Below, piece after piece: positions 1 through 15,359 of a stretch of DNA of 64,000 nucleotides. The notes beneath the pieces were generated by a model. The model saw only the letters and a list, made by a program, of their open reading frames with translations. It did no database searches and had not been told where the DNA came from. Source of the stretch: a virus (lineage: Duplodnaviria; Heunggongvirae; Uroviricota; Caudoviricetes); IMG/VR virus record IMGVR_UViG_3300035544_000169. One strand, written 5' to 3'. The translations under genes were made by a program, and so were the position numbers. Each line of letters begins with the position of its first letter. The stretch's first letter is position 1.

Positions 1-843
1 TACCCTTTAGATATTACGACAACAAATGCAACAAGAACTGAAGTAAGAGCACTATTTGATGATTTGGAATCTAAAAGAGTTATTTTATATAACTCAATTA
101 CAGATGCCAAGCAGGAAGAGGCTATTCTTTACTCTGAAGCTGATATAGTAAGTGACCCTGAGATAAATATATTCCATTTCGATAAGCATCTTACATCAAC
201 AAAAGGTGTTCATCCAGCAGGAGATTTTACAGTTTCAATAGAAACTGGATTATTTAAAAACGGTGCTGGAATCCACAGCGTAGATGAGGGAGTTTTGTTC
301 TATAATACAGCAGACCTTAATTTAAATACAAATTCAGGAACAATATCGATGGCTTTTAAGATACCAAGTGATGTAGATTTTAAAGGAAGTTCAGGTTACA
401 AGAGATTATTTAGCATAGGAGAGTTTGCTACAGAGGGCCAGTTTATAGCTTACTATAACTTAAGCGACAACACCTTCAGATTTAGAATCCATGACGGAAC
501 AACAGCACAGGAAGTTACCGCAAATCATGTTTATCAGCCAGGATTTAAACGCTTTACTTTTAAGTGGAGCCCTGATGAGATGGCTATTTTTATAGGTAGC
601 GAAAAATTTATCAAAAATAGTTTTAATCTGCCGGAATTTTTTGCCTCAGATATAATATACTTCGGTTCCAAAAACAAAAACGAGGAGCACATTAATTCCG
701 TGATAGATGAGGTTTTAATTTCTAACAAAGCTGAAGACGATATGAAGATAAAAAGATGGGCCAAAATGAATAGGCCGTTTAATGATACCGAAGATTATAT
801 ATCTGTACCAATTGCTGATGTTGTAAATATTAATTGGTTATAA
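1..843 (+). CDS. C-terminal part of a fibre/receptor-binding-like protein with a LamG/ConA-like lectin domain (5' end lies outside the window)
   Basis: Frame 1 is open from nt 1 with no stop before 64. It contains the HFDKHLTSTKG motif followed by a beta-rich domain ending ...DEVLISNKAEDDMKIKRWAKMNRPF, like the C-terminal modules of ORFs 865 and 3113. Confidence 0.55.
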   Translation, partial: YPLDITTTNATRTEVRALFDDLESKRVILYNSITDAKQEEAILYSEADIVSDPEINIFHFDKHLTSTKGVHPAGDFTVSIETGLFKNGAGIHSVDEGVLFYNTADLNLNTNSGTISMAFKIPSDVDFKGSSGYKRLFSIGEFATEGQFIAYYNLSDNTFRFRIHDGTTAQEVTANHVYQPGFKRFTFKWSPDEMAIFIGSEKFIKNSFNLPEFFASDIIYFGSKNKNEEHINSVIDEVLISNKAEDDMKIKRWAKMNRPFNDTEDYISVPIADVVNINWL

Positions 844-864
844 AAATTAAGAGGTGGTATAAAA

Positions 865-3096
865 ATGAATAAACAAATAAGAAACGCAAAGATAACATGG
901 GACTGGTCTGGTGATGAGTTTGCATTAGAAAGATTTAATGTAGTTTTAACCCCTTCAGGGGGAGACCCAAGACAGGATGCAACAGTTTATGCATCTGCAG
1001 GAACCACAAAAAACAAAAACGGACTTTATGAATATATATTTAGAGATATAACAGTAGATACAGCCAATACATATGTAGCATGGGTTCAGGCAGTTTATGA
1101 AAACGAGGATAGTGATTGGCTTTCTACAAGTACTCTGGTTATAGAAGATGATGGAACACCGTCAATAGCTTCACTTGATGAAGTTGACACTGTAGCCGCA
1201 GATAAAGTTCAGACCTTTATTGACGGCCAGTACACAACAGATAAAGAAGCACTGCAGACACAAATTGACGGCAAGATAGAAACATGGTTTACCTCAACTG
1301 ACCCTGAGACAAACTGGACAACAGCTTCTGAAAAGGAAAAACACCACGGAGATATGTGGTACAACGGAACCTCAAACCAGCTTAAAAGATATAACTGGGA
1401 CGGTTCTGCAGGAAGCTGGATTTTAATACAGGACCAGAAAGCAATTGACGCTTACGATAACGCTTCTAAGGCTCAGGATACAGCAGACGAAAAGAGAAGA
1501 ATCTTTACCTCAACTCCTACAACCCCCTATGATGTAGGTGATATGTGGGCACAGGGTGAAGCAGGAGACATGTATGTCTGTAAAACTGCAAAGCTTGAAG
1601 GCGAAAGTTATTCAGTAAATGACTGGCAGAAAGCTGCTGACTATGCAACAGGAACAGAATACCAGAATTTTGTAGACAGCATGACTCAAAATATGACAGA
1701 ACTCCAAAACCAGCTAGATGGCAATATAACAACCTGGTTTATGGATGGGGTACCTAGCTTAACAAGCCAGCCATATACAGACTGGGAAACAGAAGATAAT
1801 GCATCAACTGATGATACAGATTACTATATCAGAAATTCTCACCTGGGAGATATCTACTATGATAATGTAACAGGTACAGCCTACCGTTTTACAGGCTCAA
1901 CAGGCTCATATTCCTGGACAGAAATAACAGATAACGCCTTGACTGAAGCTTTGACAACAGCAAGAGGTGCTGAAGATTTAGCTGACCAGAAAAGAAGAGT
2001 TTTTGTCACAACTCCAACGACACCTTATGATGTCGGAGATTTATGGACAGAAGGAGAAAGCGGAGATTTATACCGCTGTATTACTCCTAAATCAGACACA
2101 GGTTCTTACAGCTCAAACGACTGGGAAAAGGCAGTAAAATATACAGATGACACAACAGTAAATACTTTCATAGACGGGACATTTGCAGATACAGTTGACG
2201 ATTTAACAGGCCAGATTGACGGTAAGATAGATACCTGGTTTGGCTCAACAGACCCTTCTACAAGCTGGGCTGGCACTGATGCCTCTCACGAAGGAGACCT
2301 CTGGTATGACAATACATCAGGTTCTCAGAAGCTTAAAAGATGGGATGGGGCAGGCTGGAATGAGATAACAGACCAGAAAGCAATAGACGCTATGGAAGCT
2401 GCAGGAGAAGCTCAAGGGACCGCTGATAAAAAGAAGACAATATTCACAAATGAGCCAGTTTCTCCTTATGATGTAGGTGATATGTGGTGGCTTGGCCCGG
2501 ATAATGTTGATATGAAAATCTGTACAACAGCTGATGGTTCAACAGGAAACTTCACAGCTTCTCATTGGGAACTTGCTACTAATGCAGAACAGTATACAAA
2601 AGATTTAACACACGCTCATATAGTTAATCCAAACACAACCTATTTATTCCACTTTAATAAAAATATAACATCTACTGATGGAGTAGGTCCTAACTCAGGT
2701 TATGATGTTAATTTGCACAAAGATGGAGGCAAATTCGGTGGAGCAGCAGAAGTAGTCAGTAGCCTGTCGTATAACTTCGGCAGTTTAACAGATTATACTA
2801 TATCAGTCTACTATACAAGCACATTAGGCGGTTCTTTTGACCATTATGTAATAAAGTCTAACGGAGAGAAGTATGTGAATGGAGAGAGAAATGACGGAGC
2901 TACCACAAGCTTCATGACAGTTAGTGCACCAAATATAACATTAAACACAGGAGTATATGATGAACTGATGGTCTCAACAGAATTAAATTCAGCAGCAGAG
3001 ATAAAAAACTGGTATGATATGCAGAAACCATTTTTTGACCCTGAACTTACAATAGATGTTCCGGAGCCAACCTCAATTACAATGAGTTGGAATTAA
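865..3096 (+). CDS. Tail fibre / receptor-binding protein paralogue 1 (N-terminal anchor, 3 tandem ~150-aa repeats, C-terminal LamG-like lectin domain)
   Basis: The N-terminus ITWDWSGDEFALERFNVVLTP...WVQAVYENEDSDW...DDGTPSI is shared with ORFs 3113, 9330 and 15359. Internal repeats IDGKI(E/D)TWF..TDP.T.W...GD.WY...KR..WDG..W..I.DQKAIDA...PYDVGD(M/L)W occur three times. The C-terminus has HFNKNITSTDG followed by a LamG-like fold ending NWYDMQKPFFDP. An RBS GAGGTGG lies upstream. Confidence 0.75.
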   Translation: MNKQIRNAKITWDWSGDEFALERFNVVLTPSGGDPRQDATVYASAGTTKNKNGLYEYIFRDITVDTANTYVAWVQAVYENEDSDWLSTSTLVIEDDGTPSIASLDEVDTVAADKVQTFIDGQYTTDKEALQTQIDGKIETWFTSTDPETNWTTASEKEKHHGDMWYNGTSNQLKRYNWDGSAGSWILIQDQKAIDAYDNASKAQDTADEKRRIFTSTPTTPYDVGDMWAQGEAGDMYVCKTAKLEGESYSVNDWQKAADYATGTEYQNFVDSMTQNMTELQNQLDGNITTWFMDGVPSLTSQPYTDWETEDNASTDDTDYYIRNSHLGDIYYDNVTGTAYRFTGSTGSYSWTEITDNALTEALTTARGAEDLADQKRRVFVTTPTTPYDVGDLWTEGESGDLYRCITPKSDTGSYSSNDWEKAVKYTDDTTVNTFIDGTFADTVDDLTGQIDGKIDTWFGSTDPSTSWAGTDASHEGDLWYDNTSGSQKLKRWDGAGWNEITDQKAIDAMEAAGEAQGTADKKKTIFTNEPVSPYDVGDMWWLGPDNVDMKICTTADGSTGNFTASHWELATNAEQYTKDLTHAHIVNPNTTYLFHFNKNITSTDGVGPNSGYDVNLHKDGGKFGGAAEVVSSLSYNFGSLTDYTISVYYTSTLGGSFDHYVIKSNGEKYVNGERNDGATTSFMTVSAPNITLNTGVYDELMVSTELNSAAEIKNWYDMQKPFFDPELTIDVPEPTSITMSWN

Positions 3097-3112
3097 AAGA
3101 GAGGTGTAGACT

Positions 3113-5749
3113 TTGAACAAACAAAACAGAGACGGAAATATAACATGGAGCTGGGAGGGAGATACCTTTGCCTTAAGGGGGTTTAATGTTGCCATAACCC
3201 CCTATGGTGGCAACCCAAACAGTGAGTCAATTGCAAAGGCAAGAGTTGAAGCCTCATCAAGGTCTTATACTTTTGAAAATATAACTATTAATGCTGATGG
3301 AGAATATCAGGGCTGGGTGCAGGCTATTTATGAAGGTGGAGATAGTGCCTGGCAGACTACGGGTAAGATAACAGTACCTGATGACGGAACACCAACCATA
3401 GTATCTTCTACTGATGTAGACACAATAGCAGATGAAACAGAACAGAATGCAAAAGAATATTTCGATTCACGCTACATAAAAGACAATGACGAGCTGATTC
3501 ATTTTGATAAGCATTTAACTTCTACTAAGGGGTTGGAGCCGGAAGCTGGCTATGAAGTAACTATAAGAGAAGATGGAAAACATGATGGAGCTGTGGCCAT
3601 AGAGGAAAGCACTGAGAATTTATCAAATGGAATATCAGGAACGAGTGGAATTTCTTTAACTTATATTAGTGATGAAAATGGTTGGAAAAAGTATAGTTTA
3701 AGTGGCACCTGGAACAGTGGAACATATCCATACTGCATGCGCCTTAAAGGTGTTAGTTTAAAAGCTAATACTGCTTATTCTACTTCGTTTTATTTTAAAA
3801 CTAATGCACAGCACAAATTTCACTCAGAAATAAGGTCTGTTAATTATGTGAACATGTCTTTGGTTACAACCGGAAATTTTTCAGTTGAGAAGCTACATAA
3901 TGATATCTTTTTTGTTAAAAGAGAGGGGTTTATTTACCCTAAAGATACAACCCAATCAGGATATTTGTCTATAAGACCAAAAGAAAATGGAACTACATTT
4001 AATCCTAATACTGATTTTGTATACTTTAAAAAAGTTCAAGTAGAAAAAAGTATATTCTCAACCTCATTCACAGAATCAACCAGAGACAAAGGTAAGCTTA
4101 ACTATCCTATCAATACTGATAATAAAACAATTAATTTCTACAGAAAAGGTGTTACGAGTTTAGTAGAGAATACAAACGAGGATTTTAGTAAAGGAATATT
4201 AACTGATGTAGAAGTTGTTGGTGATGGGGTTGAGTTATTAAAACCTACTTTTGAAGATGATTTTTTAAACTCAAATAATTGGACAGGCAATTTTGATATT
4301 GACAATGGATATTTAAGACATACAGCAGACAATATTTCTGCATATACTATTAACAACGTTATTGAGTCTGGTAAAAAAACTATAAATTTTAAATTTATGA
4401 ACAATGGTCATGGTTCATCACAGGACCAATACTATGTATCTCCTATATGGAATAGTGATGATGATAGATTAACCTTTTACATGAGGACTTACAAAAGCGG
4501 AGATTATGAAATAGAACTACTATCTTTAATAGGTGGGGCAAGCACTTCTTTATTTTCTGACACAAAATACAACTATTATAATATGGCTGGTCAATGGTTT
4601 AATATAAAAATGTTTAAAGATAGTTCTGATATTAAAGTTAAAATATGGATTGAAGGAGACTCTGAGCCTGAGAATTGGGATTGGGAAGTTTCAGCCCCAG
4701 AAGGAGTAGTTGATGAAGGCAAGTTTCATTCTTTTGCAAGATATACTGATGTTAATGGAACTGGGTTGGATAATATCTATATAGAACAATACAAAAAATC
4801 TGGCACCCGACAATCACCTCAACTAAATCTATCTGATATTAATAATGTTACTGATAGTTTAATAGAGTGGGAAGGAAATTACATCGAAGAAGAGAACTTC
4901 GGAGATAGCATGGGGGGAAGTTATCACGGTAATAATGGATTAATCTATTTTGATGTTCATAGAAGAATGAGACTTGATAGTGTGCTTATTGATGCTAATT
5001 TTACAGGTGATGTTGTTATAACATTACAGGATGGTAGCGGAGGCTATATAAAAGACAAAACTATCAATATATCAACTTCAGGAGAGCAGAGGATAGATAT
5101 AGGCTGGGTGTTAGAACCTGGAAGCTACAGAATAGGAAGGGTAACAAATACCAGCGCCACGCCATTAAGAAGGATTCCGGGTGCAGCAACATTTCCATAT
5201 GAAAGTAAATATAATATAGCAACAATGACTGGAACAAATGCTGCTGATTATTATTATTATTTTTTTGACTGGCACATAACTGACTTAAGCTCATTAAAAG
5301 TAGAAACAAGCGTAGATAATGGTTCTTCATGGCAATTGTGTGAAAATGGGGGCTCAGTTCCTAACCTGCCAACAAGTCCAACGACACTTGATGTAAGGCT
5401 CAAACTCAGCACTGGTGCAACAACCATAACCCCTACTCTATCAGAAGTTAAGGCATATATCTTTACTGATAGTGATGATGAGTACAAAATGTACACCATC
5501 AAGCCTGACGGCACAGCTTATCTAAACGGTAATCAAATAAATGCAGTACCGAATGCCGTGATAGATATAACCGAACCCGGCAAGTTACAGTTTAAACCAA
5601 ACAACATCTATGACGAAGTACTAATAAAAGATGGAGACGTAACAGAAGAAGAAATCAATAACTGGTATGAACTCGGAACACCATTCGTTGATTTGCACCC
5701 TAAAACAAACACAAATACACCCACAAATGTAGTATTAACAGAGGTTTAG
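3113..5749 (+). CDS. Tail fibre / receptor-binding protein paralogue 2 (shared N-terminal anchor; modules shared with ORF 11544; C-terminal LamG-like domain)
   Basis: The N-terminus ITWSWEGDTFALRGFNVAITP...WVQAIYEGGDSAW...DDGTPTI matches the other fibres. It carries the HFDKHLTSTKG motif. Blocks GTWNSGTYPYCMRL, GYLSIRPKENGTTFNPNTDFVYFKK, TRQSPQLNLS and SVDNGSSWQ...NLPTSPTTLDVR are homologous to ORF 11544. The C-terminus ends ...EEEINNWYELGTPFVD. Confidence 0.75.
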   Translation: MNKQNRDGNITWSWEGDTFALRGFNVAITPYGGNPNSESIAKARVEASSRSYTFENITINADGEYQGWVQAIYEGGDSAWQTTGKITVPDDGTPTIVSSTDVDTIADETEQNAKEYFDSRYIKDNDELIHFDKHLTSTKGLEPEAGYEVTIREDGKHDGAVAIEESTENLSNGISGTSGISLTYISDENGWKKYSLSGTWNSGTYPYCMRLKGVSLKANTAYSTSFYFKTNAQHKFHSEIRSVNYVNMSLVTTGNFSVEKLHNDIFFVKREGFIYPKDTTQSGYLSIRPKENGTTFNPNTDFVYFKKVQVEKSIFSTSFTESTRDKGKLNYPINTDNKTINFYRKGVTSLVENTNEDFSKGILTDVEVVGDGVELLKPTFEDDFLNSNNWTGNFDIDNGYLRHTADNISAYTINNVIESGKKTINFKFMNNGHGSSQDQYYVSPIWNSDDDRLTFYMRTYKSGDYEIELLSLIGGASTSLFSDTKYNYYNMAGQWFNIKMFKDSSDIKVKIWIEGDSEPENWDWEVSAPEGVVDEGKFHSFARYTDVNGTGLDNIYIEQYKKSGTRQSPQLNLSDINNVTDSLIEWEGNYIEEENFGDSMGGSYHGNNGLIYFDVHRRMRLDSVLIDANFTGDVVITLQDGSGGYIKDKTINISTSGEQRIDIGWVLEPGSYRIGRVTNTSATPLRRIPGAATFPYESKYNIATMTGTNAADYYYYFFDWHITDLSSLKVETSVDNGSSWQLCENGGSVPNLPTSPTTLDVRLKLSTGATTITPTLSEVKAYIFTDSDDEYKMYTIKPDGTAYLNGNQINAVPNAVIDITEPGKLQFKPNNIYDEVLIKDGDVTEEEINNWYELGTPFVDLHPKTNTNTPTNVVLTEV

Positions 5750-5767
5750 TTTAGTTTAATAAACAAC

Positions 5768-5796
5768 TTGAAAAATGGTCCAGAATATGGTATAAT
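5768..5796 (+). promoter_or_regulatory. Canonical sigma-A/sigma-70-type promoter (TTGAAA-N17-TATAAT with extended TG) upstream of the rSAM/cytidylyltransferase cassette
   Basis: TTGAAA at 5768-5773, a 17-nt spacer, and TGGTATAAT at 5788-5796. It lies ~35 nt upstream of the RBS and start codon of ORF 5832. Confidence 0.55.
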
Positions 5797-5831
5797 TATA
5801 TATAGAAGGAAAGAATAAAAAGGGGGCCAAA

Positions 5832-6635
5832 ATGTACACTAATCTAAGAATGGTAGAAATAGAAATACACAGCTATTGCAACAGAACATGCAGTTGGTGT
5901 CCTAATAAATATATAAATCGAAAGATAAAAAAGATACTGCCTAAGACTAATTATACAAATATTTTAAACGAACTCAAGTCCATCGATTATAAAGGAACAA
6001 TAAGTTACTCAAGGTATAATGAACCTTTTGCTTTGAAAGAAATTTTTGCTCAGTATACTAAAAAAGCAAGGTTGTTATTACCTGAAGCAAGACTTGTAAC
6101 AAACACCAATGGAGATTATCTTACAAACTCAATTTTAGATAGAGTTGAGATAGATGAGCTTTCAATAATGGATTACGACAACAAAGGTTTAGGCTACTGT
6201 ATTCAAAGAATGGAAGATTTAAATTTTGAGATAACAGAAATAATAGATAATAAGATATACGGTTTTGGTCACGACATGGAAGTAGTGTATGTTAGCGACT
6301 GGGCCAGACTGGAAAGCTTTGGAGACAGGGCGGGCTCTTTAGAAAAAGCAGATAAAAAAATAAGAAAAAAGAAATGTTATGAGCCTTTTCATTTTCTTGG
6401 GATAGACTACAACTGCAATGTGATGCCCTGCTGCAACTTCAGAAGCGATAATAATATCCACCAGGAATTTGTACTTGGTAACATAAAAAACGAAAGTATC
6501 AGGTCAATACTGGATTCTAAAAAGCTAAAAGACCTGCAGTTAAGACTTCAAAACTTAGACTTTCCCGAGCAGTGTAAATACTGCATCAAAGAAGAGGGAA
6601 GGTATACCAGGGAGAATCCCGGTATAAAATATTGA
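5832..6635 (+). CDS. Radical SAM domain protein, paralogue 1 (CxxxCxxC plus C-terminal Cys-rich twitch/SPASM-like region)
   Basis: HSYCNRTCSWCPN (Cx3Cx2C), NEPF (GGEP-like), TNTNGD (TNG ribose motif), and a C-terminal C...YNCNVMPCCNF...CKYC cluster. It is paralogous to ORFs 18551 and 19465. An RBS AAAGGGGG lies upstream. Confidence 0.75.
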   Translation: MYTNLRMVEIEIHSYCNRTCSWCPNKYINRKIKKILPKTNYTNILNELKSIDYKGTISYSRYNEPFALKEIFAQYTKKARLLLPEARLVTNTNGDYLTNSILDRVEIDELSIMDYDNKGLGYCIQRMEDLNFEITEIIDNKIYGFGHDMEVVYVSDWARLESFGDRAGSLEKADKKIRKKKCYEPFHFLGIDYNCNVMPCCNFRSDNNIHQEFVLGNIKNESIRSILDSKKLKDLQLRLQNLDFPEQCKYCIKEEGRYTRENPGIKY

Positions 6636-6654
6636 GATTAAAAGGAGTTAATAA

Positions 6655-7335
6655 ATGAAAAAAATCGGAGTTTTTATTCCTGGTAGATTACAAAGCGAAA
6701 GGCTTCCAAACAAATTAGTACTTCCTTTAGGAGATACAAACCTTTGGGATATAGCCTGTAAAAAGCTAAACAGTCTGCCAGATAAGTATAATAAATATGC
6801 ACTATGCTACGACAAAGAGCTTGTAGAGATTGCTCAAAAATATGATAATCTAACAGTTATTTTAAGAGATAAAATTACGGCTTTAGTTGATGGCCCGCTT
6901 GAGTATATATTTAAAGACTTAAAAGAAGTAGAAGATACACATTTAATGTTTTTAAATCCGTGCCTTGCTTTTTTAAAAAAAGAAACAATCTTAAAGTCAT
7001 TAGAGACATTCGATAGTTTAGATGAAGATTACTGTGAGGGCAATTATGCAACAAGCGTAAAAGTTTATAAAAACTGGTTATTTAATAATCAAAATCAATG
7101 CTTAACAGATATAAATTATGAGAGGCTGACAACAAAAGAAATACCTGATTATTACGAAGCTGCTCACTGCTTTCATATTTTTAATAAAGATAATTTTTTC
7201 AAAGACGGGCAGATGCTAAAAGACAACCATTCTTTAATAGAAGTACCAAACAAAGAAGTAATAGATATAGACACCAAAGAGGATTATGAATTTGCTAAAT
7301 GGAAGTGGGAAAATAAGTCAACTTCTCCCACCTAA
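6655..7335 (+). CDS. Acylneuraminate/nonulosonate cytidylyltransferase family protein (NeuA/PseF/SpsF-like, CTP_transf_3)
   Basis: N-terminal IPGRLQSERLPNKLVLPLG (the R..S.R...K motif of CMP-sugar synthetases), a mid NPC..F block, and C-terminal IDIDTKEDYEFA, all matching CMP-NeuAc synthetase family signatures. Confidence 0.65.
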   Translation: MKKIGVFIPGRLQSERLPNKLVLPLGDTNLWDIACKKLNSLPDKYNKYALCYDKELVEIAQKYDNLTVILRDKITALVDGPLEYIFKDLKEVEDTHLMFLNPCLAFLKKETILKSLETFDSLDEDYCEGNYATSVKVYKNWLFNNQNQCLTDINYERLTTKEIPDYYEAAHCFHIFNKDNFFKDGQMLKDNHSLIEVPNKEVIDIDTKEDYEFAKWKWENKSTSPT

Positions 7336-7336
7336 T

Positions 7337-7560
7337 CAAAAACAAGATTAGAAGGGAGCTTGTTAAGTAATAAACCATACTCAGTATAGTCTATTAACAA
7401 GTTTTCGCACCTTCTTAAACCCACAAGTGGGTGATTCAGGATTAAGAAAGTTACAGGATGGTTGACTCGTGAATCTTTTTCACCCTATCCACCATGTTAA
7501 AACACAGTGGGTTACAGATTACTCTGTAAGCTGTATTAAACAGCTATGCTACATCGACAA
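7337..7560 (-). ncRNA. Predicted TnpB omega (right-end) RNA overlapping the tnpB 3' end and RE
   Basis: Structured, relatively GC-richer segment downstream of the tnpB stop, with hairpins CCCACAAGTGGG and TTACAGATTACTCTGTAA. Position and orientation fit the omega RNA of IS605-family TnpB. This is inferred, with no expression data. Confidence 0.3.
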
Positions 7561-8698
7561 AAGGATTTTCTATCTCAATACCCATAGCAAGTTTAGCTAT
7601 ATTTATACTGGCATTAGTATCAGCATTAAAAGTGTGACCATTAGTACATTCAAACAAGTTTTGTGTTTCTCTTATGCCTTCTTGTCCACATACGTGGCAT
7701 ATCTTAGATGTTTTGTAAGGATTAACTTCTTCAACAGGTAAGTTATTAAGATTAGCTTTATGTTTTACAAACTGTTTTAATTGATAGTAAGCCCAACTAT
7801 TTTTCTCATAGTTGTTTAGATTGTTATCGTTAGTAATATTCTTTCTAATATTCTTAAGGTTTTCAAATACAATAGTAGAATTATATTCTTTAGCTATCTC
7901 AATAATTCTATTAGTTATAAGCCAGTTAGTTTCTTTAGTAATTCTGTTTTCTTTAATCAGTGAAGTATTCTTACTATCAGACTTAAAAGCTTTACGCTTA
8001 CGTTTACTTTTATATCTCATACGTTTAAACCTTAACTCTTTACCTGATAGGTGTTCAGTATGCAAAATATTTTCACTGCTGTCTACTACACTAAACGTAG
8101 CTAGATTAATAATACCAAGGTCAACACCAAGATGAGTGTCTGTTTCTTTTCCTTTCACTTCGTATCTTAGTATAAAATTAAGATACCATTCACCATCTTG
8201 TTTATATAGCTCAGCTGTTTTAATCTCGTACCTATCATTATTAATATAATTTAAGTGGTAGTTGCTTAAAGAGATAGGTACGTAGATATTGTTATAAGGC
8301 TCAATGCTTATCTTTATAATATTAGTACCGTTATCTTTTCTTATAAGTTTAAAACTTTTATTCTTAACTAAATCAACAGGTACTTGATAGTTAAACTTAA
8401 CGTTATCTCTAAACTTTTTATGACAAGACTTATAAGATTCCATAGCTTTACGATTAGCTTCAATAGCTACCTGTGAAGGGAGGTTGTAATTATTCTTAAC
8501 AACTCTATATACATGCTTATGTGATTTAGTGTAAGCAGTAAGCCCCCAGTGTTTAATTATTTTGAGGGCTGAACGAATAGCTTTGTTCCAGTTACGAGAA
8601 AGCTTTTTTAGTTCATTACGTTTAATATTTGTAGGTTCAAATAATTTAATGTGGTGTAGTGTGATATGTGATTTACTCATTGTTATCACTTTCTTCAT
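7544..8698 (-). CDS. tnpB: TnpB (IS605 OrfB family RNA-guided endonuclease)
   Basis: RuvC-I LGVDLGIINLA, RuvC-II IVFENL, zinc finger CHVCG...C, and RuvC-III FNADTNASINIA. The true start is probably MSKSHI at 8680, which overlaps the stop of the upstream RHH ORF. Confidence 0.9.
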   Translation of the reverse strand: MKKVITMSKSHITLHHIKLFEPTNIKRNELKKLSRNWNKAIRSALKIIKHWGLTAYTKSHKHVYRVVKNNYNLPSQVAIEANRKAMESYKSCHKKFRDNVKFNYQVPVDLVKNKSFKLIRKDNGTNIIKISIEPYNNIYVPISLSNYHLNYINNDRYEIKTAELYKQDGEWYLNFILRYEVKGKETDTHLGVDLGIINLATFSVVDSSENILHTEHLSGKELRFKRMRYKSKRKRKAFKSDSKNTSLIKENRITKETNWLITNRIIEIAKEYNSTIVFENLKNIRKNITNDNNLNNYEKNSWAYYQLKQFVKHKANLNNLPVEEVNPYKTSKICHVCGQEGIRETQNLFECTNGHTFNADTNASINIAKLAMGIEIENPFVDVA

Positions 8699-8813
8699 AG
8701 TATTGAAATAAAATATAGCGAACCATTTCTGAAATGCCTATGCCTTTTTTGTTTCCTTCTTCATCTAGTTTATCTCTAAGATATTTAGGTAAAGAGACTT
8801 GTGTTCGTTCCAT
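8673..8813 (-). CDS. Small ribbon-helix-helix (CopG/Arc-like) protein encoded inside the IS, translationally coupled to tnpB
   Basis: 46 aa, MERTQVSLPKYLRDKLDEEGNKKGIGISEMVRYILFQYYEESDNNE. The RBS GAGGTGAT sits 5 nt before the ATG. The stop overlaps the tnpB ATG (ATGAGTAA). Confidence 0.5.
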   Translation of the reverse strand: MERTQVSLPKYLRDKLDEEGNKKGIGISEMVRYILFQYYEESDNNE

Positions 8814-8995
8814 TTTTATCACCTCATACTACTATTATACCACATTTTGTTGTAAAAGTCAAGTATTTAAACACTTAAATGTTACAAAATATTTAAAAAA
8901 GGATGGTGAAAAAATAGTAAGGATATTAAATTACGCAATTCCTCCCCACCCTAATCAGAGACAAGATTAGGATGAGGTTTCCTTGCTATAAATAA

Positions 8996-9286
8996 ATGAA
9001 ATATGTTGTAGATATAGATGGAACTATATGTACACAAGAGAAAAACTATCATGATGCTAAGCCAAAAAAAGAAAAAATAAAAATGTTTAACAGATTATAT
9101 GATGAAGGAAATACTATATGGTACTTCACAGCTAGAGGTACTGAAACTGAAATTGACTGGCGTTTTGTCACAGAAAAGCAGTTTGAGGACTGGGGTGTGA
9201 GGTACCATAAATTATTATTTAAAAAACCCTCTGCCGATGTTTATGTAGGAGATAGAATGGTTAATATAGAAAATTTTGAAATTTAA
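8996..9286 (+). CDS. Small HAD-like phosphatase-fold protein (DxDGT motif), paralogue of ORF 30450
   Basis: VVDIDGTIC (HAD motif I), ...WYFTARG..., YVGDR. It shares the pattern with 30450..30845. Confidence 0.45.
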   Translation: MKYVVDIDGTICTQEKNYHDAKPKKEKIKMFNRLYDEGNTIWYFTARGTETEIDWRFVTEKQFEDWGVRYHKLLFKKPSADVYVGDRMVNIENFEI

Positions 9287-9329
9287 TTTTTTAAAGGGGG
9301 GCAAACTTCAAAAATAGAGAGGTGAAATA

Positions 9330-10664
9330 ATGGCATATGTTATAAAAAACTTAAAGATAACATGGGATTGGTCAGGAGACATATATGCTGTTCTTGGATT
9401 TAATGTAGCAATAACACCTGTTGGAGTTGAGCCTACTGATGAGATTGTTGTATTAGCTCAAACCGGTAAGGAAAAATTTGAGCATACATTCAGGCAGATT
9501 ACACTAAAAGACGGCATTGAATATACGGCATGGGTTCAGGCTATCTATGAAAATAAAGATAGTCAGTGGATAAGCGTCAGCGGGTTTATAGCCAATGATG
9601 ACGGCACAGCTACTATAACAACTAAAGACCAGCACGACGCTCTTTTAGATGAAACTGTTAATTACAGAACAAAAGGGTCTCCAACTAATGAGCCAACACC
9701 GACCAATATAGTTGTTAATGAAAACAGCAACGGCTCTCTAGATATTAGAGTCGAGTGGGCACCATATAGTCAGGGGACAAGAAAAGCAGATATGCTTATT
9801 CTTTTCTGGAAAAAGGGTGATACTTCAGGTCTTGGAGTGCCTACAACAGAAGACAGCAATGTTAGCTTTAGTGTAAACGAAAGCAATAGTGCGTACTACT
9901 TATTAGAAGGACTTGCTCCTAATACATTTTATAGATTTGGTATAGCAGCAGCAAGAAGAACAGAAAACGGATTAGAGATTGGCAATATAGTAAGTCCTGC
10001 AAGTTGGACAGATGTTGATGTTGGTGATGCAACCATCAATCACGACAATGTTAATGGTTCAGCTGGTGGAGGAACATTCCTTTTAGACGAAAACGGTATT
10101 AGACATACAAGCGGTAGCTTTAGTATAGACCCCGACGGAAACGCCCATTTTGAAGGCGAGATAGTAATTGGAGGTACAGCAACTTCAACCAATGACTTAG
10201 AAACACAATCAGGGGCACAAAGCAAAGCTGATTCTGCTGAAGAAAACGCTAAATCTTATTCAGAAAATGCTGTTGGTGCTGTTGAAAATTGGACTTCTGA
10301 TACAACAAATTACACAACTATTTCTGGTGGAGTAGTAAGGACAGGGCAGATTCAGTCAGAAAATTATGAACCACAAACAAAAGGAGCTCAGGTTGACCTA
10401 GATAGCGGCATTATAGATTTCGGAGGAAGATTATACTACGAACCAAACTTAGGATTACTTGTAAACGGAACCATTTATGCAGAAGATGGGTACATATCTG
10501 ATGGTGTTACAGTAGGAGCAGAAGGTAAATCGATACTCGAAACAATAAACGAATCAACGAAAAAAAAGGTAAATGTAAAACCCGAAGGTGGTAAGTTGTG
10601 GCATTTTGACAAGCACTTCACATCCACCCAGGGAGAAATGATTACAATAATAAAACCAGTTTAA
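9330..10664 (+). CDS. Tail fibre paralogue 3 (shared N-terminal anchor; FN3/Ig-like middle; ends at the HFDKHFTSTQG motif with no lectin module)
   Basis: N-terminus ITWDWSGDIYAVLGFNVAITP...WVQAIYENKDSQW...DDGTATI. The block TSTNDLETQSGAQSKADSAEENAKSYSENAVG is shared with ORF 15359. The protein terminates 8 aa after LWHFDKHFTSTQG. Confidence 0.7.
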   Translation: MAYVIKNLKITWDWSGDIYAVLGFNVAITPVGVEPTDEIVVLAQTGKEKFEHTFRQITLKDGIEYTAWVQAIYENKDSQWISVSGFIANDDGTATITTKDQHDALLDETVNYRTKGSPTNEPTPTNIVVNENSNGSLDIRVEWAPYSQGTRKADMLILFWKKGDTSGLGVPTTEDSNVSFSVNESNSAYYLLEGLAPNTFYRFGIAAARRTENGLEIGNIVSPASWTDVDVGDATINHDNVNGSAGGGTFLLDENGIRHTSGSFSIDPDGNAHFEGEIVIGGTATSTNDLETQSGAQSKADSAEENAKSYSENAVGAVENWTSDTTNYTTISGGVVRTGQIQSENYEPQTKGAQVDLDSGIIDFGGRLYYEPNLGLLVNGTIYAEDGYISDGVTVGAEGKSILETINESTKKKVNVKPEGGKLWHFDKHFTSTQGEMITIIKPV

Positions 10665-10667
10665 GGA

Positions 10668-11075
10668 GTGAATATAATGGCATTACATTTTTATCATGAT
10701 GCAGCAGGTACTCAAGAGATAACAGAAGCAGATGTAGACCATGAAAGACTTGCTGATGTTGTAGGCAGCACTATTATATCAGAAACACAAATTTATATAG
10801 GTTCAGATGACCCTAATTTAACATACGAAAATATAGTTGTCAGCACAGTAAATGATTTTGACCATACATCAAACGCAGGAGAGATTGACATAGAATATGC
10901 TTTAGACAGTAATGGAAGTCCAGGTACATACAATCAGGTTTTAAATGTTCCAAATAATGATTTTGACCCACCTGTACCTATCTGGAGGAAGATGACAGCA
11001 CCAAATATAACAACCGCCTTTACAATAAGTAATATAGAACATCACATAGAAAATTATGACGAATATGTTAAGTAA
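10668..11075 (+). CDS. Hypothetical acidic protein (structural-module accessory)
   Basis: ORF of 135 aa with an RBS GGAGTG, D/E-rich. It starts 3 nt after fibre 3. No recognisable motif. Confidence 0.4.
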   Translation: MNIMALHFYHDAAGTQEITEADVDHERLADVVGSTIISETQIYIGSDDPNLTYENIVVSTVNDFDHTSNAGEIDIEYALDSNGSPGTYNQVLNVPNNDFDPPVPIWRKMTAPNITTAFTISNIEHHIENYDEYVK

Positions 11076-11233
11076 TTAGTTTAGTAATATTTATAATACT
11101 TAACAACAGAAGGGAGGTTTTAGTTTTATCATTAGACTACAGTATTGAGACTGGTATTACACTAATGACTCACTCTCTGTTTATTCTAGCAGCAAATACG
11201 AGATTGGAGAAACAAAAAGCATAAATATTATTA

Positions 11234-11524
11234 GTGATTATGAAAGTCTGCTCGCAAACCTCGAGGGCTTGCCCCGAGGAGCGTCAAGGAAGAATATATG
11301 TTGATAAGGAGTTAATAGAAACTAATATAAGTTGGTTTGAATTTAACGAAACAGATAAAACAGTAACGATTAAAAATGAGGCGATTGATATCGATGAACT
11401 AATAGCGATACCATTTATGATAACAGATGAAGACCTTGATAGGTATTACAACTCAACATTTTACGACCCTGACGAAAAAGAAAAAATAAACAAACCAGAC
11501 AATATAACAATGATAGAACTATAA
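11234..11524 (+). CDS. Small protein or gene fragment duplicating the C-terminal module of fibre ORF 11544 (start uncertain)
   Basis: ...EAIDIDELIAIPFMITDEDLDRYYNSTFYDPDEKEKIN matches the C-terminus ...SGAIDIDELLVFPQIIDQKQIDRIGGSPFYDPNRSVKID of ORF 11544. The annotated N-terminus overlaps a GC-rich hairpin and lacks a convincing RBS. Confidence 0.3.
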   Translation: MIMKVCSQTSRACPEERQGRIYVDKELIETNISWFEFNETDKTVTIKNEAIDIDELIAIPFMITDEDLDRYYNSTFYDPDEKEKINKPDNITMIEL

Positions 11525-11543
11525 AAAGAAAGGAGGTTTTAAC

Positions 11544-14500
11544 TTGGCTTTAAATTACGATATAACAAGTAGAGACTGGGATAATACAGATGTGAATGTA
11601 AACATAACAGACCCTGATGGATTTAATGGGATAATAGATGTTGACAATGATAATGCTAGTTTTTCAGAAGGAACTCTGACTGATGTAGAGGTAGTTAATG
11701 ATAATTTGCAGTTAAAACAATTTGACTATTTTAGTGGGTATGAAGATAGTAAAAATTTAGAAGGAAGGTCTAGTGATATATCTCCTACCACTGATATTTC
11801 TACCTATAAAGAGGGTTTAGGGAGAAATGGAGGAACAAGTATTGCTGTTGAGCCTAGCACTACAAATTTAATAGACCCTACTTCAATTAGAGGAACCCGT
11901 AACATTTCACTTAATTATATAGGAATAGAAAGTGGTTATTATAAATATGGAATAAGTGGGACTTGGAGTAGTGGTACTTACCCATATTGTATGGCGTTGC
12001 CTTCTGTAAGTTTTACAGGAGGAGTTAGGTATAGTGCCTTTATACAGTATTACACAAATGTACCAGAAAAGTTTAACCATAAAATTGACGCTATAAAATA
12101 TGTAAATGAACCACTAGATTATGGAGAAAGGAATTTTACAACTGATTTACCTAATGGGGATAGATTAGTACAAGCTATGGGTTTTGCATATACCTCAACC
12201 ACAATTCAAAATGGGTATTTGAATATGCGACCAGTTTCTGATGGCACTTCATTTAACCCTGATACAGACTTTATATATTTCAAGAAAGCACAAATTGAAG
12301 AAAGAGCTTTTTGTACATCATTTGTAGATGGTAGTAGAAGCAGTGGACAATTAAAGTATCCTATAACAATACCAAAAGATAACTTCACTATTAATTTATG
12401 GGCTAAATGGGATTGGGACACTTCACTATTACCGGATAGAACAGTTAGACTACTCCAAATTAATGACTATTATGTGAATAATTCAATAACAATTATGAGG
12501 TGGAAGACTGACCCTTCTCTAGGAACTTGGCAGAAGGATAGTAGTGGAGTATGGGAAACCCAAGACATTTGCGATATAGATAATAATTCTTTCCAATGGA
12601 ATATGATTACTATAAAAAAAGATGGTAATGAGCTTAGTTTTTATCATAATGGTAGTTTATCATCAACTAGGATTTTATCTAATGATTTCGATACAGATAT
12701 ACCATATTTAGCATTAGGGTATTATGGTGTCTCTAATGAAACAGGTTTTATTTATGATGAATTAATGATAGAGAAAAAAGCTATAAGCGATAGTCAAATA
12801 CAGAAAATATATAATCAACAACTACCTGCTAAAAGAATGGACAATGGAACACGCCAAGCCCCTCAACTAGACTTATCAGCAGTTAATGATGTAGCAAGTA
12901 GTAGTATTAGTTGGAAATATTATCCTTATCAAGCTAACTTTGATATAATAAATTTAACTGATGAATGGATAATAGAATTGGGTAATCCATCTTTAAGCAC
13001 AACATCAGAGGACGGCAATAAGTCTGTTTATTTTCCAGGTGATGGCGCTTATCACAGAATAAAAAGTAATTATAGATTTAATGTTGAAGAAGGAGAAGAA
13101 TATAAATGTAGAATAAGAGCAAAAGGTGATGCAGGAACTTCAAGCATGTATGTTGGTCTTACTGCTAATAACAATCAAAATTATCGATACTTTTCAAATA
13201 TGAGTTATGTTAATGTAGGAGAAAGTTGGACTACTTATGAAGGAAGATTAACTATTCCTGCTGGTATAACAGAGGTAGGAATTTGGATATTCAATTATGT
13301 AAATAACACAGGTGCATTATGGGTTGATGATATTACTATCACTAAAACATCTGTAGTAAACTCTGTAGATGAAAATTTATTAACTACTATCAAAACCTCC
13401 ATTGACAACGGCTCAACCTGGCAGACAGCAACTAATGGTGGTGCTATACCTAACCTACCTGCTAATCCAACTACTCTTGATGTAAGGCAAACTCTTGATA
13501 CTAATGACACTACTTTGACCCCTGTATTAGAGAGTTTAGAGGTACAAATAGAAACTCCAATAAAATATAAGTGGAGCTTAGATACTACTAATCCTAACAC
13601 TTGGGAAACATTTACCTCTAACCCCTTGACTCAATCACAGGATGGTCAATGGTACTTATATACTAAAGCTTTTAACTCAGACAACCAAGTAGTGATAGAC
13701 AGACAAGGGACTTATGATATAGATAAGACACAACCTGATGTACCTAATGTTAATTTAATCAATAATACTTCTCACTCATTCAGTTTAGAGTGGACTAATA
13801 GCGATAGCTTATCAGGAGTAGATTATGTAGAACTATATACTGAAGAAAGTGACGGCAGTTTAAATTATGTGGCTGATATAGATATTGATGGAGATTCTAA
13901 CACAGAACCTTCTATACAGCTTTCAAATACTGATACAAGCTATACTGTTGATGGTTTAAGTGAATATACTAATTATAGATATAAGGTAAGAGTATTTGAT
14001 AAGGCAGGAAACTTCAGTGAAGATACTTATGCTGAGATGATAACTGATGATATTACAGAACCAATTGTTGGTTATAGTTTGAATTCAAGAGATTGGTTAA
14101 ATACAAATGTAGATGAGGTAATTAATGTTGATGACCAGGCTGGTTCTGGTGTAGCAGAGGCATGGTATAAGTGGACAAACTCAGCTGTTCAACCTACTGA
14201 TGGATGGATTGTAATGGGTACAACTACTAATTTTGCTACCTCTCAATCACAAGAAGGTGAATGGTATTTACACATCAAGGCAACTGATAATTACAATAAC
14301 ACAGCCTATGATTATTCAGGGCCATATAAGATAGACAAAACAGCACCAGTAATCAACTCAACCAACATAACAATTGATTCACCAACTGGGGTCTATGACA
14401 CCTATACAGCCACAATAGAGTGGTTCATAGAAGACCAGCAAGACTTATCCGGTGTTGACAGAACAGAGATAGGGTTTTACGTAGATGGTATTTGGCACTA

Positions 14501-15359
14501 CGATGAAAACACACTTCCTGATGGTATAACAACAAATACTGATATGGATAATATAACAGGTGGTGGGAGTAAAACAGCAATTTTTAGCAATGTACCTAGA
14601 GAGATAGATATAGCTGCAAGCTTTAATGGTTATGATATAGCAACAAATGAAACTGGAGAGCAACAAATTAGTTCTATATTTACCCCAAGAATATATGCTA
14701 GTCATACTTTAACGGGATTAAGCGACTATGAAATGGGAATAAACTCAGATTATAAATCTGAAACAAAATACGAAACTGGTATAAACAAAAATTACCAGTC
14801 GCCAAGTTCTCAGATAATAGATGTTTTATCAAAGTCATACGATTCTCCTACACTCTACGAAATAGGTAAAAGAACAAATTATAAATCACAAACATTATAT
14901 GAAGCAGGCATAAACAAAACAGAAGGTCCGGCACCTTCACTACAGGATATCTTGGTATTGTATGACGAACCTATCTTAGTAAGCGGTAAATTCTCGCAAG
15001 GCATAAGGCTAGGTCTATCAGACTTAGAAATTGATATCAGCGATTTTACTGAATGGACAATGCATGTATTTAGAAGAGGTATAGACGATAGTGAGTTTAG
15101 AACAATATTTATCAACTCAGATGGAGAGGTCTATGTTGATAACGAAATAAACAATAAGTATGATGTCAGCTGGTTTGAGAGCACAAACGACAAAATAACT
15201 ATTAAAAGTGGAGCTATTGATATAGATGAGCTTTTAGTTTTTCCACAGATAATAGACCAAAAACAAATTGACAGAATAGGAGGGTCTCCGTTTTATGACC
15301 CTAACAGAAGTGTAAAAATTGATATGCCGGATTCAGTCGATATGGAGGTAATGCAATAA
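11544..15359 (+). CDS. Large tail fibre / host-recognition protein (1271 aa; lectin-like, FN3-like and short tandem repeat modules), TTG start
   Basis: The RBS AAAGGAGG precedes the TTG start. Modules are shared with ORF 3113. FN3-like segments are present (SFSLEWTNSDSLSGVDYVELY; AWYKWTN...). Internal repeats YKSETKYETGINKNYQSPS / TLYEIGKRTNYKSQTLYEAGINKTEG. The C-terminal module is shared with ORF 11234. Confidence 0.7.
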   Translation: MALNYDITSRDWDNTDVNVNITDPDGFNGIIDVDNDNASFSEGTLTDVEVVNDNLQLKQFDYFSGYEDSKNLEGRSSDISPTTDISTYKEGLGRNGGTSIAVEPSTTNLIDPTSIRGTRNISLNYIGIESGYYKYGISGTWSSGTYPYCMALPSVSFTGGVRYSAFIQYYTNVPEKFNHKIDAIKYVNEPLDYGERNFTTDLPNGDRLVQAMGFAYTSTTIQNGYLNMRPVSDGTSFNPDTDFIYFKKAQIEERAFCTSFVDGSRSSGQLKYPITIPKDNFTINLWAKWDWDTSLLPDRTVRLLQINDYYVNNSITIMRWKTDPSLGTWQKDSSGVWETQDICDIDNNSFQWNMITIKKDGNELSFYHNGSLSSTRILSNDFDTDIPYLALGYYGVSNETGFIYDELMIEKKAISDSQIQKIYNQQLPAKRMDNGTRQAPQLDLSAVNDVASSSISWKYYPYQANFDIINLTDEWIIELGNPSLSTTSEDGNKSVYFPGDGAYHRIKSNYRFNVEEGEEYKCRIRAKGDAGTSSMYVGLTANNNQNYRYFSNMSYVNVGESWTTYEGRLTIPAGITEVGIWIFNYVNNTGALWVDDITITKTSVVNSVDENLLTTIKTSIDNGSTWQTATNGGAIPNLPANPTTLDVRQTLDTNDTTLTPVLESLEVQIETPIKYKWSLDTTNPNTWETFTSNPLTQSQDGQWYLYTKAFNSDNQVVIDRQGTYDIDKTQPDVPNVNLINNTSHSFSLEWTNSDSLSGVDYVELYTEESDGSLNYVADIDIDGDSNTEPSIQLSNTDTSYTVDGLSEYTNYRYKVRVFDKAGNFSEDTYAEMITDDITEPIVGYSLNSRDWLNTNVDEVINVDDQAGSGVAEAWYKWTNSAVQPTDGWIVMGTTTNFATSQSQEGEWYLHIKATDNYNNTAYDYSGPYKIDKTAPVINSTNITIDSPTGVYDTYTATIEWFIEDQQDLSGVDRTEIGFYVDGIWHYDENTLPDGITTNTDMDNITGGGSKTAIFSNVPREIDIAASFNGYDIATNETGEQQISSIFTPRIYASHTLTGLSDYEMGINSDYKSETKYETGINKNYQSPSSQIIDVLSKSYDSPTLYEIGKRTNYKSQTLYEAGINKTEGPAPSLQDILVLYDEPILVSGKFSQGIRLGLSDLEIDISDFTEWTMHVFRRGIDDSEFRTIFINSDGEVYVDNEINNKYDVSWFESTNDKITIKSGAIDIDELLVFPQIIDQKQIDRIGGSPFYDPNRSVKIDMPDSVDMEVMQ

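Follow-up and report, generated by a model that had tools for sequence, protein, structure and literature searches.

Why does one short peptide recur in four tail-fibre and tail-tip genes of a single phage locus, followed in some by a lectin-like domain or other modules and in one by a stop codon within a few residues? The locus lies in a 64,000-nt stretch of a caudoviricete genome (IMGVR_UViG_3300035544_000169; the whole stretch is referred to below as the window). A six-frame scan of the window with the pattern [FIW]HF[DN]K[HN][LFI]TST[KDQ]G gives four matches, all on the plus strand, with the motif histidine codons at 175 (ORF ..843), 2650 (ORF 865-3096), 3500 (ORF 3113-5749), and 10602 (ORF 9330-10664). 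The scan bears out the first-pass annotation, which had described an HFDKH(L/F)TST(K/Q)G-type motif at four fibre and tail-tip sites; its four sites stand, apart from the third and fourth intervals, which were 1-2 nt out of frame.

The first copy, FHFDKHLTSTKG (172..207, plus strand), is found in the C-terminal part of a tail-tip protein of ~1486 aa, whose plus-strand gene extends beyond the first position of the window and has its end at 843. Its full-length orthologs in two related phages (L001 and L019) contain Phage_Tail_Tip, CarboxypepD_reg, and Laminin_G_3 domains. The second, FHFNKNITSTDG (2647..2682, plus strand), belongs to the fibre encoded by ORF 865-3096 and is followed by a stop 137 aa further on. 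The third, IHFDKHLTSTKG, which occupies 3497..3622 (plus strand) together with two more predicted strands reaching to 'STENL', is part of the fibre encoded by ORF 3113-5749. The fourth is part of the terminal module VKPEGGKLWHFDKHFTSTQGEMITIIKPV of fibre 3 (ORF 9330-10664), which with its stop codon spans 10575..10664 on the plus strand, the motif covering 10599-10634 and the remaining tail 10635-10661.

A 33-position profile of the motif retrieves 24 proteins at E<=1e-3 from 1.84e9 cluster representatives, ~18 of them genuine, which is far above chance expectation. The carriers form a small clade of uncultivated phages with genomes of ~200 kb. No match to positions 1-12000 of the window was returned by megablast against 50,697 phage records, and PHROGs gave zero matches for the tail-tip C-terminus, ORF 3113, fibre 3, the 132-aa protein encoded downstream of fibre 3, and ORF 11544.

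The motif had also been described as conserved at the DNA level. On alignment, the four copies match at 58-73% over 33 nt and their flanks at 25-48%, yet there is no DNA identity beyond that of the encoded peptide. The identity is due wholly to codon positions 1 and 2, which match at 79-92%, while the third positions (25-50%) are randomised. In codons for identical residues, the third base is shared in 2-4 of 7-11 cases, at or below the codon-usage expectation, and the longest exact runs among the four copies measure 5-9 nt. Since their DNA identity is not elevated, the four window copies are poor substrates for recombining with each other. The four direct-orientation repeats inside 10.5 kb might still be taken to mean that the 33-nt DNA is itself a signal for a site-specific recombinase, an invertase-type shufflon, or a diversity-generating template. 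However, every copy is in-frame coding sequence in one orientation, no recombinase or reverse transcriptase was found in the locus, and the sole mobile element, a TnpB insertion at 7317-8989, is unconnected with the motif. By virtue of the third-position and exact-run comparison, such a signal is effectively refuted and retains next to no probability.

Conservation is thus a property of the peptide, and one structural explanation is that the motif merely opens the LamG jelly roll as its first strand, proteins that stop after it being functionless leftovers of domain deletion. A LamG-type domain does follow the motif in ORF ..843, ORF 865, and L003. Furthermore, a 715-aa protein of L019 with a canonical Laminin_G_3 domain (115 bits) has a leader, LVGFWKLDG...SLEVSG..., that by eye resembles the motif region and likewise lies ~45 aa upstream of the start of the Pfam model; the lack of DNA conservation past the peptide level also agrees with this explanation. 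Nevertheless, the motif is located outside the Pfam model. The Laminin_G_3 (PF13385) match in ORF ..843, at 28.2 bits (cut-off 27.6), begins 45 aa past the motif. Elsewhere, the domain scores 43.5 bits in L003 and 19.4 bits, under the cut-off, in P0043, again downstream of the motif, and no Pfam match to it is obtained in ORF 865 or ORF 3113.

The first-pass annotation had the motif open a LamG domain ending in an NWY...PF signature in three ORFs. The LamG domain is supported in ORF ..843 and, by Pfam, in neither of the others. The signature is not found as such in ORF ..843, where the sequence reads RWAKMNRPF, and ORF 3113 has ~720 aa, containing several unrelated swappable modules, between the motif (aa 130) and NWYELGTPF (aa ~850). 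For the motif and LamG region of ORF ..843, AlphaFold with a shallow alignment gave a pLDDT of 42, a word-based homolog search gave just two matches, 99% identical, and a PDB profile search with the motif and LamG alignment returned nothing significant. Small LamG domains of the same family also occur without the motif, namely at the C-terminus of ORF 11544, in a 201-aa protein of L001, and in the LamG-only proteins of L012, L013, and L021. Since other proteins have the motif and no LamG domain, the two are doubly dissociable.

Evidence against a simple first strand also comes from the proteins that end just after the motif. Fibre 3 does stop soon after it, 9 aa (EMITIIKPV) past the motif glycine and not 8 as first reported. 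An assembly artefact, which had been named as a possible cause of this short tail, was rejected; the identical 444-aa protein is present in independent assemblies, protein and locus recur in independent samples, and 12 distinct proteins end likewise, 6-9 aa past the motif. The internal forms also number 12 distinct proteins. The terminal forms span three unrelated families, comprising anchor-type fibres with an ITWDW anchor (P0001, P0003, P0004, P0005, and P0041) and two kinds of tail-tip protein, one of them Tal-like (P0037, P0038, P0047, L008, and L012). P0049, also a terminal form, is an ortholog of the tail-tip protein of the window and stops after the motif without a LamG domain. P0050 has terminal-type upstream sequence yet runs on into a LamG-like extension, and so links the terminal and internal classes.

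The motif block ranks second in conservation within the fibre-3 family, with an identity of 0.72 against a mean of 0.40, while the sequence ~60 aa upstream of it falls to 0.05-0.12. Terminal forms with 49-57% overall identity keep both the motif and the hydrophobic tail of 6-9 aa. Purifying selection evidently acts on the motif block in this family, and a stop directly after the motif is, on this comparative evidence, a natural layout kept up by selection. Given how high the block ranks in conservation, the terminal forms do not look like decaying remnants; with their spread over three families, the 45-aa offset of the Pfam model, and the LamG domains that lack the motif, this makes it unlikely that the motif is nothing but a first lectin strand.

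Other ways of continuing fibre 3 past its stop were also considered and rejected. Directly downstream lies a conserved gene (10677..11075, plus strand) for a 132-aa all-beta Ig-like protein, and stop-codon read-through could fuse the two; however, the two reading frames agree, with one TAA between them, in the window group and L003 but not in L002, L007, L008, or L011, and L020 has a 60-nt spacer. A frameshift into a hidden LamG domain was dismissed, both other frames past the motif being full of stops. The 96-aa ORF at 11234-11524, a candidate for the LamG half that fibre 3 lacks, proved to be the remnant (11226..11524, plus strand) of a separate gene for a small LamG protein of 201 aa; L001 has that gene intact, and L002 and L005 lack it. 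In the remnant, a GC-rich palindromic stretch of 42 nt (11246-11287) has taken the place of ~344 nt.

The motif coincides with a change in relatedness when orthologs are compared, as had been anticipated for module boundaries in related phages. ORF 3113 and its ortholog P0040 are ~97% identical up to 'ELIHFD' and ~52% identical from the motif to 'TENL', past which an unrelated CBM-like domain is followed by ~98% identity from 'TSFTESTRDKG'. At the nucleotide level, the nearest relative of ORF 3113 switches at nt 3497-3499, the first motif codon, from its ortholog in the 212-kb relative L019 to the 715-aa paralog in the same phage. Up to nt 3497, the ortholog is favoured at 41 of 42 informative sites, and from 3499, the paralog is favoured at 32 of 48 (Fisher p=2e-11, uncorrected for breakpoint scanning). 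The motif DNA itself is identical to the paralog at 36/38 positions and to the ortholog at 29/38. A second junction lies after 'TENL' at nt 3622, where all similarity ends, such that the stretch from the motif to 'STENL' constitutes a 126-nt linker with a recombination junction at each end. The same second boundary is seen in P0039, P0040, and P0044, which share a common motif-to-TENL allele and diverge directly past TENL.

At a larger scale, a block consisting of the motif, the short tail, and the 132-aa gene recurs behind unrelated protein bodies, and ~30 nt ahead of the motif the nucleotide identity begins to climb from 20-43% to 63-86%. Comparison of these genes identifies the motif as a true module boundary, a type of feature well known from mosaic phage fibre genes. 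Only one breakpoint maps to the motif at nucleotide resolution. The insertion at 788..5743 (plus strand), which comprises the end of the tail-tip gene and the fibres ORF 865 and ORF 3113 and is present in the window and L019 but not in L001 or L004, has its junction at the 'W..PF' C-terminus of the lectin domain and not at the motif (window compared with L001/L004). Relative to L001 and L004, the window has two additional fibres and L019 three. The proposed recombination hotspot is therefore upheld as a junction of distal modules, whereas the supposed identity among the copies within one genome is not, and the mapped insertion lies elsewhere.

The reading that best accommodates these observations, to which we assign a probability of about 0.6, is that the motif marks a beta-module adaptor for the host-recognition end of the fibre, either built in cis or forming the natural end of the protein, and swapped by crossovers. 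The motif would be the core of a module of ~30-40 aa, predicted as a strand, a turn, the strand 'LWHFD', the loop 'KHxTSTxG', and a further strand, and positioned at the distal shaft end of tail-fibre and tail-tip proteins. When built in cis, a ConA/LamG-type lectin domain would come after the module, often with a variable CBM-like jelly roll inserted past the third strand ('..TENL'); in the alternative build, the protein stops 6-9 aa past the motif, the module presumably serving as a cap. Given the constraint on the peptide in each of these proteins, the DNA encoding it could act as a homology patch linking fibre genes, otherwise unrelated, of co-infecting relatives. Homologous crossover at or just upstream of the motif would then exchange the whole distal cassette.

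Comparable arrangements are known in T-even phages, in whose tail-fibre and adhesin genes (gp37/gp38) glycine-rich motifs separate hypervariable, swappable specificity segments (PMC3157838). As in gp37/gp38, short and strictly conserved peptides would be both structural elements and exchange points for host-recognition segments among related phages (PMC3157838), the breakpoints here falling at the first motif codon and right past 'TENL'. There are, however, several differences. The motif is unrelated to those of the T-even proteins in sequence and fold and has no glycine-rich core, each fibre has a single junction motif and not an array, the motif is also the natural C-terminus of many proteins, and exchange is deduced here by comparison alone, not from crosses.

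A second parallel is T4 fibritin, whose C-terminal end varies between the small foldon on the one hand and expanded domains or a chaperone encoded downstream on the other (PMC3797505). In both systems, an elongated fibre may end in a beta element of ~30 aa or in a larger globular domain at that place, C-terminal modules are swapped among relatives, and some versions of fibritin need the product of the next gene (PMC3797505). In the present family, a ~30-aa beta element, its strand character judged from the sequence pattern, lies at the extreme C-terminus of 12 distinct proteins. The module is nevertheless without similarity to the foldon (BLASTP, no alignment at E<=100), and the analogy with a shaft-end cap is loose because coiled coil is not the rule throughout the upstream sequence, which is Gly-rich in fibre 3.

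A chemical role for the motif had also been suggested, either as a site of autocatalytic cleavage or as a target for modification by the neighbouring radical-SAM/SPASM enzyme. Cis-autoproteolytic sites include HL↓T in GPS motifs and HF↓S in Nup98, which the H-[LF]-T of the motif calls to mind. The histidine ahead of [LFI]TST is replaced by asparagine in ORF 865, L012, and P0047, however, and the fibres have no Pfam match to autoproteolytic domains of the GPS type or to chaperone-protease domains (including Peptidase_S74). The radical-SAM/SPASM gene (5832-6635, plus strand) is embedded in the fibre locus next to a PseF/KdsB-like cytidylyltransferase gene (6655-7335, plus strand), an arrangement kept in L001, L004, L005, and L019. 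Against a functional connection, no radical-SAM gene is found in the 4-10 kb flanks of the motif genes of L003, L008, L011, L012, L020, and L021, and all NCBIfam matches of the radical-SAM protein are far under their cut-offs, no peptide-maturase family being reached above threshold. Because the gene adjoins the cytidylyltransferase and a capsule-phosphatase-like HAD protein, its neighbourhood suggests sugar chemistry resembling a CMP-sugar pathway. Neither cleavage nor modification at the motif is borne out, and a processing site is very improbable.

What, then, could the adaptor module hold when the protein ends with it? It has been considered that the motif does in trans its cis job in the LamG-bearing fibres, the strands 'LWHFD' and 'EMITII' at the protein end binding a separate beta-sandwich protein by edge-strand addition. 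Either the Ig-like protein of 132 aa encoded next to it or a LamG-only protein would serve as the partner, and the tip would be assembled from separate gene products. A gene of the 130-132-aa family lies directly downstream of the motif-terminated gene, or one gene off, in 7/8 locus types (directly in the window group, L002, L003, L008, L011, and L020; one gene off in L012), and the type of tail follows the relatedness of the 132-aa protein, whatever the upstream body. The LamG-only proteins (L012, L013, and L021) start with 'M.I.FIEGKFG', roughly at the point where the terminal forms stop, and weak BFVD matches (E ~3e-3) place the 132-aa fold fused within LamG-like proteins of Bacillus jumbo phages. 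Conversely, the 132-aa family also occurs without a motif-terminated neighbour (L009, L013, L015, L016, and L017), L021 has a motif-terminated protein with no 132-aa Ig-like gene nearby, and gene adjacency may reflect linkage alone. Similarity of the 132-aa protein to pilins is generic for Ig-like folds; unlike in donor-strand complementation of the chaperone-usher type, its model is a full sandwich of seven strands in which none appears to be missing, and there is no chaperone or usher. Docking in trans is consequently offered as a tentative and rather doubtful possibility.

A broader version holds that the last two strands of motif-terminated proteins are a universal plug that docks separate beta-sandwich tip proteins by strand addition, which we consider improbable. 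The partners may include the 132-aa Ig-like protein, the LamG-only proteins, or, through them, a 1271-aa multi-lectin protein (11544..15359, plus strand) with Ig-like/fn3, CBM-like, and LamG-like modules. The latter is without the N-terminal anchor domain of the fibres and is syntenic with the 132-aa gene in most relatives. If such a plug exists, shaft and tip could be joined either covalently or non-covalently through one motif, and one shaft could be re-armed with different tips while the fibre gene stays unchanged.

The motif allows the border between shaft and host-recognition cassette to be placed precisely from sequence in uncultivated phages of ~200 kb with as many as four or five paralogous fibres. 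It may be of use in annotating receptor-binding modules of metagenomic jumbo phages, in choosing fusion points for engineered chimeric fibres, and in reconstructing how fibre arrays grow. The combination of a motif-then-stop architecture with the linked 132-aa Ig-like protein offers a testable lead on multi-component assembly of the fibre tip.

Exactly four matches to [FIW]HF[DN]K[HN][LFI]TST[KDQ]G are returned by a six-frame scan of the 64-kb window, all on the + strand. Their His codons lie at 175, in the tail-tip gene, which is cut by the window start and stops at 843; at 2650, in the fibre gene ORF 865-3096; at 3500, in the fibre gene ORF 3113-5749; and at 10602, in fibre 3 (ORF 9330-10664). 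These sites agree within a few bases with the first-pass annotation, whose observation is real apart from the DNA-level conservation that it claimed. Fibre 3 does stop soon after the motif, although its tail comprises nine residues (EMITIIKPV) and not eight. The window is part of a large phage; it carries genes for a DnaE-type polymerase, RecJ, CTP synthase (32773-34425), and the anaerobic ribonucleotide reductase NrdD (50364-53405, - strand), the last split by an intein that contains a LAGLIDADG homing-endonuclease domain, and related contigs measure 180-213 kb. The genes for CTP synthase, a xanthine/uracil-family permease (46936-48123), and an alpha-amylase catalytic-domain protein (22620-23729) are auxiliary ones that are unusual in a phage.

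Over 33 nt, the four motif copies are pairwise 58-73% identical, compared with 25-48% in their flanks. The identity is carried by codon positions 1 and 2 (79-92%), whereas third positions are 25-50% identical. Where residues are identical, the third base is common in only 2-4 of 7-11 codons, which is not above codon-usage prediction, and the longest exact runs among the copies are 5-9 nt. Given these third positions and short runs, there is no nucleotide-level conservation within the genome and no plausible DNA signal; the 33-nt identity is exactly what the conserved peptide imposes.

Two recombination events are mappable, a two-fibre insertion and a mosaic ORF 3113. The former is an extra segment (window 788-5743) relative to the related loci L001 and L004, comprising the tail-tip gene end, ORF 865, and ORF 3113; its junction is not at the motif but in the lectin domain, within the C-terminal ‘IDEVLIS...W..PF’ end. 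L019, on a 212,659-bp contig, holds one more fibre, of 715 aa. ORF 3113 is ~97% identical to its L019 ortholog, P0040, up to ‘ELIHFD’ and ~52% identical from the motif to the downstream peptide TENL; the CBM-like domain is unalignable, identity is again ~98% from ‘TSFTESTRDKG’, and the last 20 aa differ. A second swapped cassette, from ‘SLIEWEG’ to ‘TITPTLSE’ (window 4875-5420, L019 5757-6494), is a canonical Laminin_G_3 domain in the L019 ortholog and an unrelated domain in the window.

In a three-way DNA alignment of ORF 3113, the ortholog, and the 715-aa paralog, 41 of 42 informative sites up to nt 3497 place the window with the ortholog, whereas from nt 3499 onward 32 of 48 place it with the paralog, such that the best breakpoint lies between 3497 and 3499 (Fisher p = 2e-11, uncorrected). 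The motif DNA of ORF 3113 is 36/38 identical to the paralog versus 29/38 to the ortholog, and no similarity persists past TENL at 3622. Three related proteins (P0039, P0040, and P0044) share one common motif-to-TENL allele and diverge directly after it. When the terminal module of fibre 3 is compared with the tails of two unrelated tail-tip proteins (L008 and L011), similarity begins ~30 nt before the motif, with nucleotide identity climbing from 20-43% to 63-86%. Together, the breakpoint, the shared allele, and this onset argue that the motif truly bounds a cassette between genomes, alongside TENL, TSFTE, and W..PF. Such boundaries are classically seen in mosaic fibre genes (PMC3157838). The earlier proposal of a recombination site for distal domains is thus borne out by ORF 3113, but not by the insertion joined at W..PF or by the four window copies, which have no extra DNA identity.

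The motif was also thought to open a LamG domain, which is only partly the case. The tail-tip C-terminus barely reaches the Pfam family Laminin_G_3 (28.2 versus 27.6 bits), and the match begins 45 aa past the motif; the L003 ortholog scores 43.5 bits, and ORF 865 and ORF 3113 have no Pfam match to this family. In ORF 3113 and L003, the motif is followed by two further predicted strands up to ‘..TENL’, a variable CBM-like domain, and the lectin core. Small LamG domains lacking the motif occur at the ORF 11544 C-terminus, in a 201-aa protein of L001, and in LamG-only proteins of L012, L013, and L021. As LamG domains occur without the motif, and the motif without a lectin domain, the two are separable. 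The canonical Laminin_G_3 domain of L019 (115 bits) has, by eye, a similar-looking leader at an equal 45-aa offset, and therefore the motif may be this lineage's counterpart to the N-terminal extension that such domains usually carry. The AlphaFold model of the motif and LamG region has a pLDDT of 42 (shallow alignment), and a PDB sequence search with this region gave no match.

ORF 865 contains three internal ~170-aa repeats that match giant PHROG ‘tail protein’ families, phrog_21973 among them, with E values as low as 2e-89; its lectin-like domain at the C-terminus, with about 140 aa past the motif, is unusually small. The 201-aa small-LamG gene, intact in L001, survives in the window as a remnant (11226-11524) in which a unique GC-rich stretch of 42 nt (11246-11287) takes the place of ~344 nt and contains the palindrome CCTCGAGGGCTTGCCCCGAGG, found once in the window. 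On either side of the cassette at 11150-11524, which L005 and L006 lack altogether, are repeats of the intergenic ribosome-binding region.

A 33-position motif-region profile, searched against 1.84 billion cluster representatives, retrieves 24 proteins at E<=1e-3, ~18 of them genuine. Pooled with the fetched loci, these yield 12 distinct terminal forms, ending 6-9 aa past the motif, versus 12 internal forms. The terminal forms span three unrelated protein bodies: fibres sharing the N-terminal ‘ITWDW’ anchor of ORF 9330 (P0001, P0003, P0004, P0005, and P0041); Tal-like tail-tip proteins of 1100-1430 aa encoded after the tape-measure gene (P0037, P0038, P0047, L008, and L012); and P0049, a 1308-aa ortholog of the window tail-tip protein that stops past the motif where the latter runs on into the lectin domain. 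An assembly artefact as the source of the short tail of fibre 3 is rejected, as the identical 444-aa protein is found in independent assemblies. A decaying remnant is rejected on the basis of the GKLWHFDKHFTSTQGEMITI block, whose identity in the fibre-3 family is 0.72, exceeded only in the N-terminal 20 residues, compared with 0.05-0.12 in the region ~60 aa upstream. Read-through and frameshift are likewise rejected. This recurrence and the conserved block argue that the motif-then-stop truncation is real, ancient, and under selection. The L001 ortholog of fibre 3 (P0002, 575 aa) harbors an extra 131-aa domain between ‘SKADSA’ and ‘EENAKSYSE’ (L001 10910-11299, window about 10238) within DNA that is 96-97% identical, another module-level indel.

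Processing or modification of the motif had also been suggested. Autoproteolysis is disfavored, as the His before [LFI]TST is replaced by Asn in ORF 865, L012, and P0047, and Pfam detects no autoproteolytic domain in the fibre proteins. Modification by the neighboring radical-SAM/SPASM enzyme is similarly disfavored, as its gene is missing from the 4-10 kb flanks retrieved around six motif-bearing loci and its product matches no peptide-maturase family above threshold. The gene adjoins those of a capsule-phosphatase-like HAD protein and a cytidylyltransferase of PseF/KdsB-like type, a neighborhood that points to sugar chemistry. Within the fibre locus, the radical-SAM/SPASM and cytidylyltransferase genes occupy 5832-7335 and the 96-aa HAD protein 8996-9286, an arrangement kept in L001, L004, L005, and L019; these may constitute a CMP-sugar pathway, perhaps glycosylating virion proteins. 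In L013, a different radical-SAM gene and a methyltransferase adjoin the fibre genes. Between the cytidylyltransferase and HAD-like genes is inserted a TnpB-only element (7317-8989; TnpB ORF 7544-8698, - strand) with Cas12f1-like TNB and OrfB_IS605 domains. Hairpins resembling each other (..cctaatc-N8-gattag..) lie at its two ends, near 7325-7350 and 8945-8975; L005, L018, and L019 have the element, whereas L001 and L004 lack it.

A gene for a conserved 130-132-aa protein (window 10677-11075) lies 12-60 nt after the motif-terminated gene in the window group, L002, L003, L008, L011, and L020, and one gene further on in L012; L021 is an exception to this linkage. The family has 23 homologs and no Pfam, PHROG, or NCBIfam match, and its model is a seven-strand Ig-like sandwich (pLDDT 93.8) with weak matches to domains within LamG-like proteins of Bacillus jumbo phages. 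It also occurs without a motif-terminated neighbor in L015 (a lambda-like tape-measure module), L016 (after a motif-less tail-tip protein), and L017 (beside a myophage spike), and thus the protein is a general tail-tip component. The tail modules that hold it differ widely: in the high-GC phage L015, it follows the lambda-like tape measure and a gpM-like gene, and in L017 it adjoins the gpV spike of the baseplate. The family appears to be a hitherto undescribed tail-tip component with a wide distribution, and specific docking of the motif tail to it is possible.

In the best-supported reading, the distal end of the shaft would carry the motif as a conserved beta adaptor, with lectin-type modules for host recognition after it or with the motif itself as the C-terminus, and its coding sequence would serve as a crossover point for swapping distal cassettes between related phages. 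As such, the motif belongs to an already well-known kind of feature; the one part deserving follow-up is the conserved motif-then-stop form and its linkage with the 132-aa protein.
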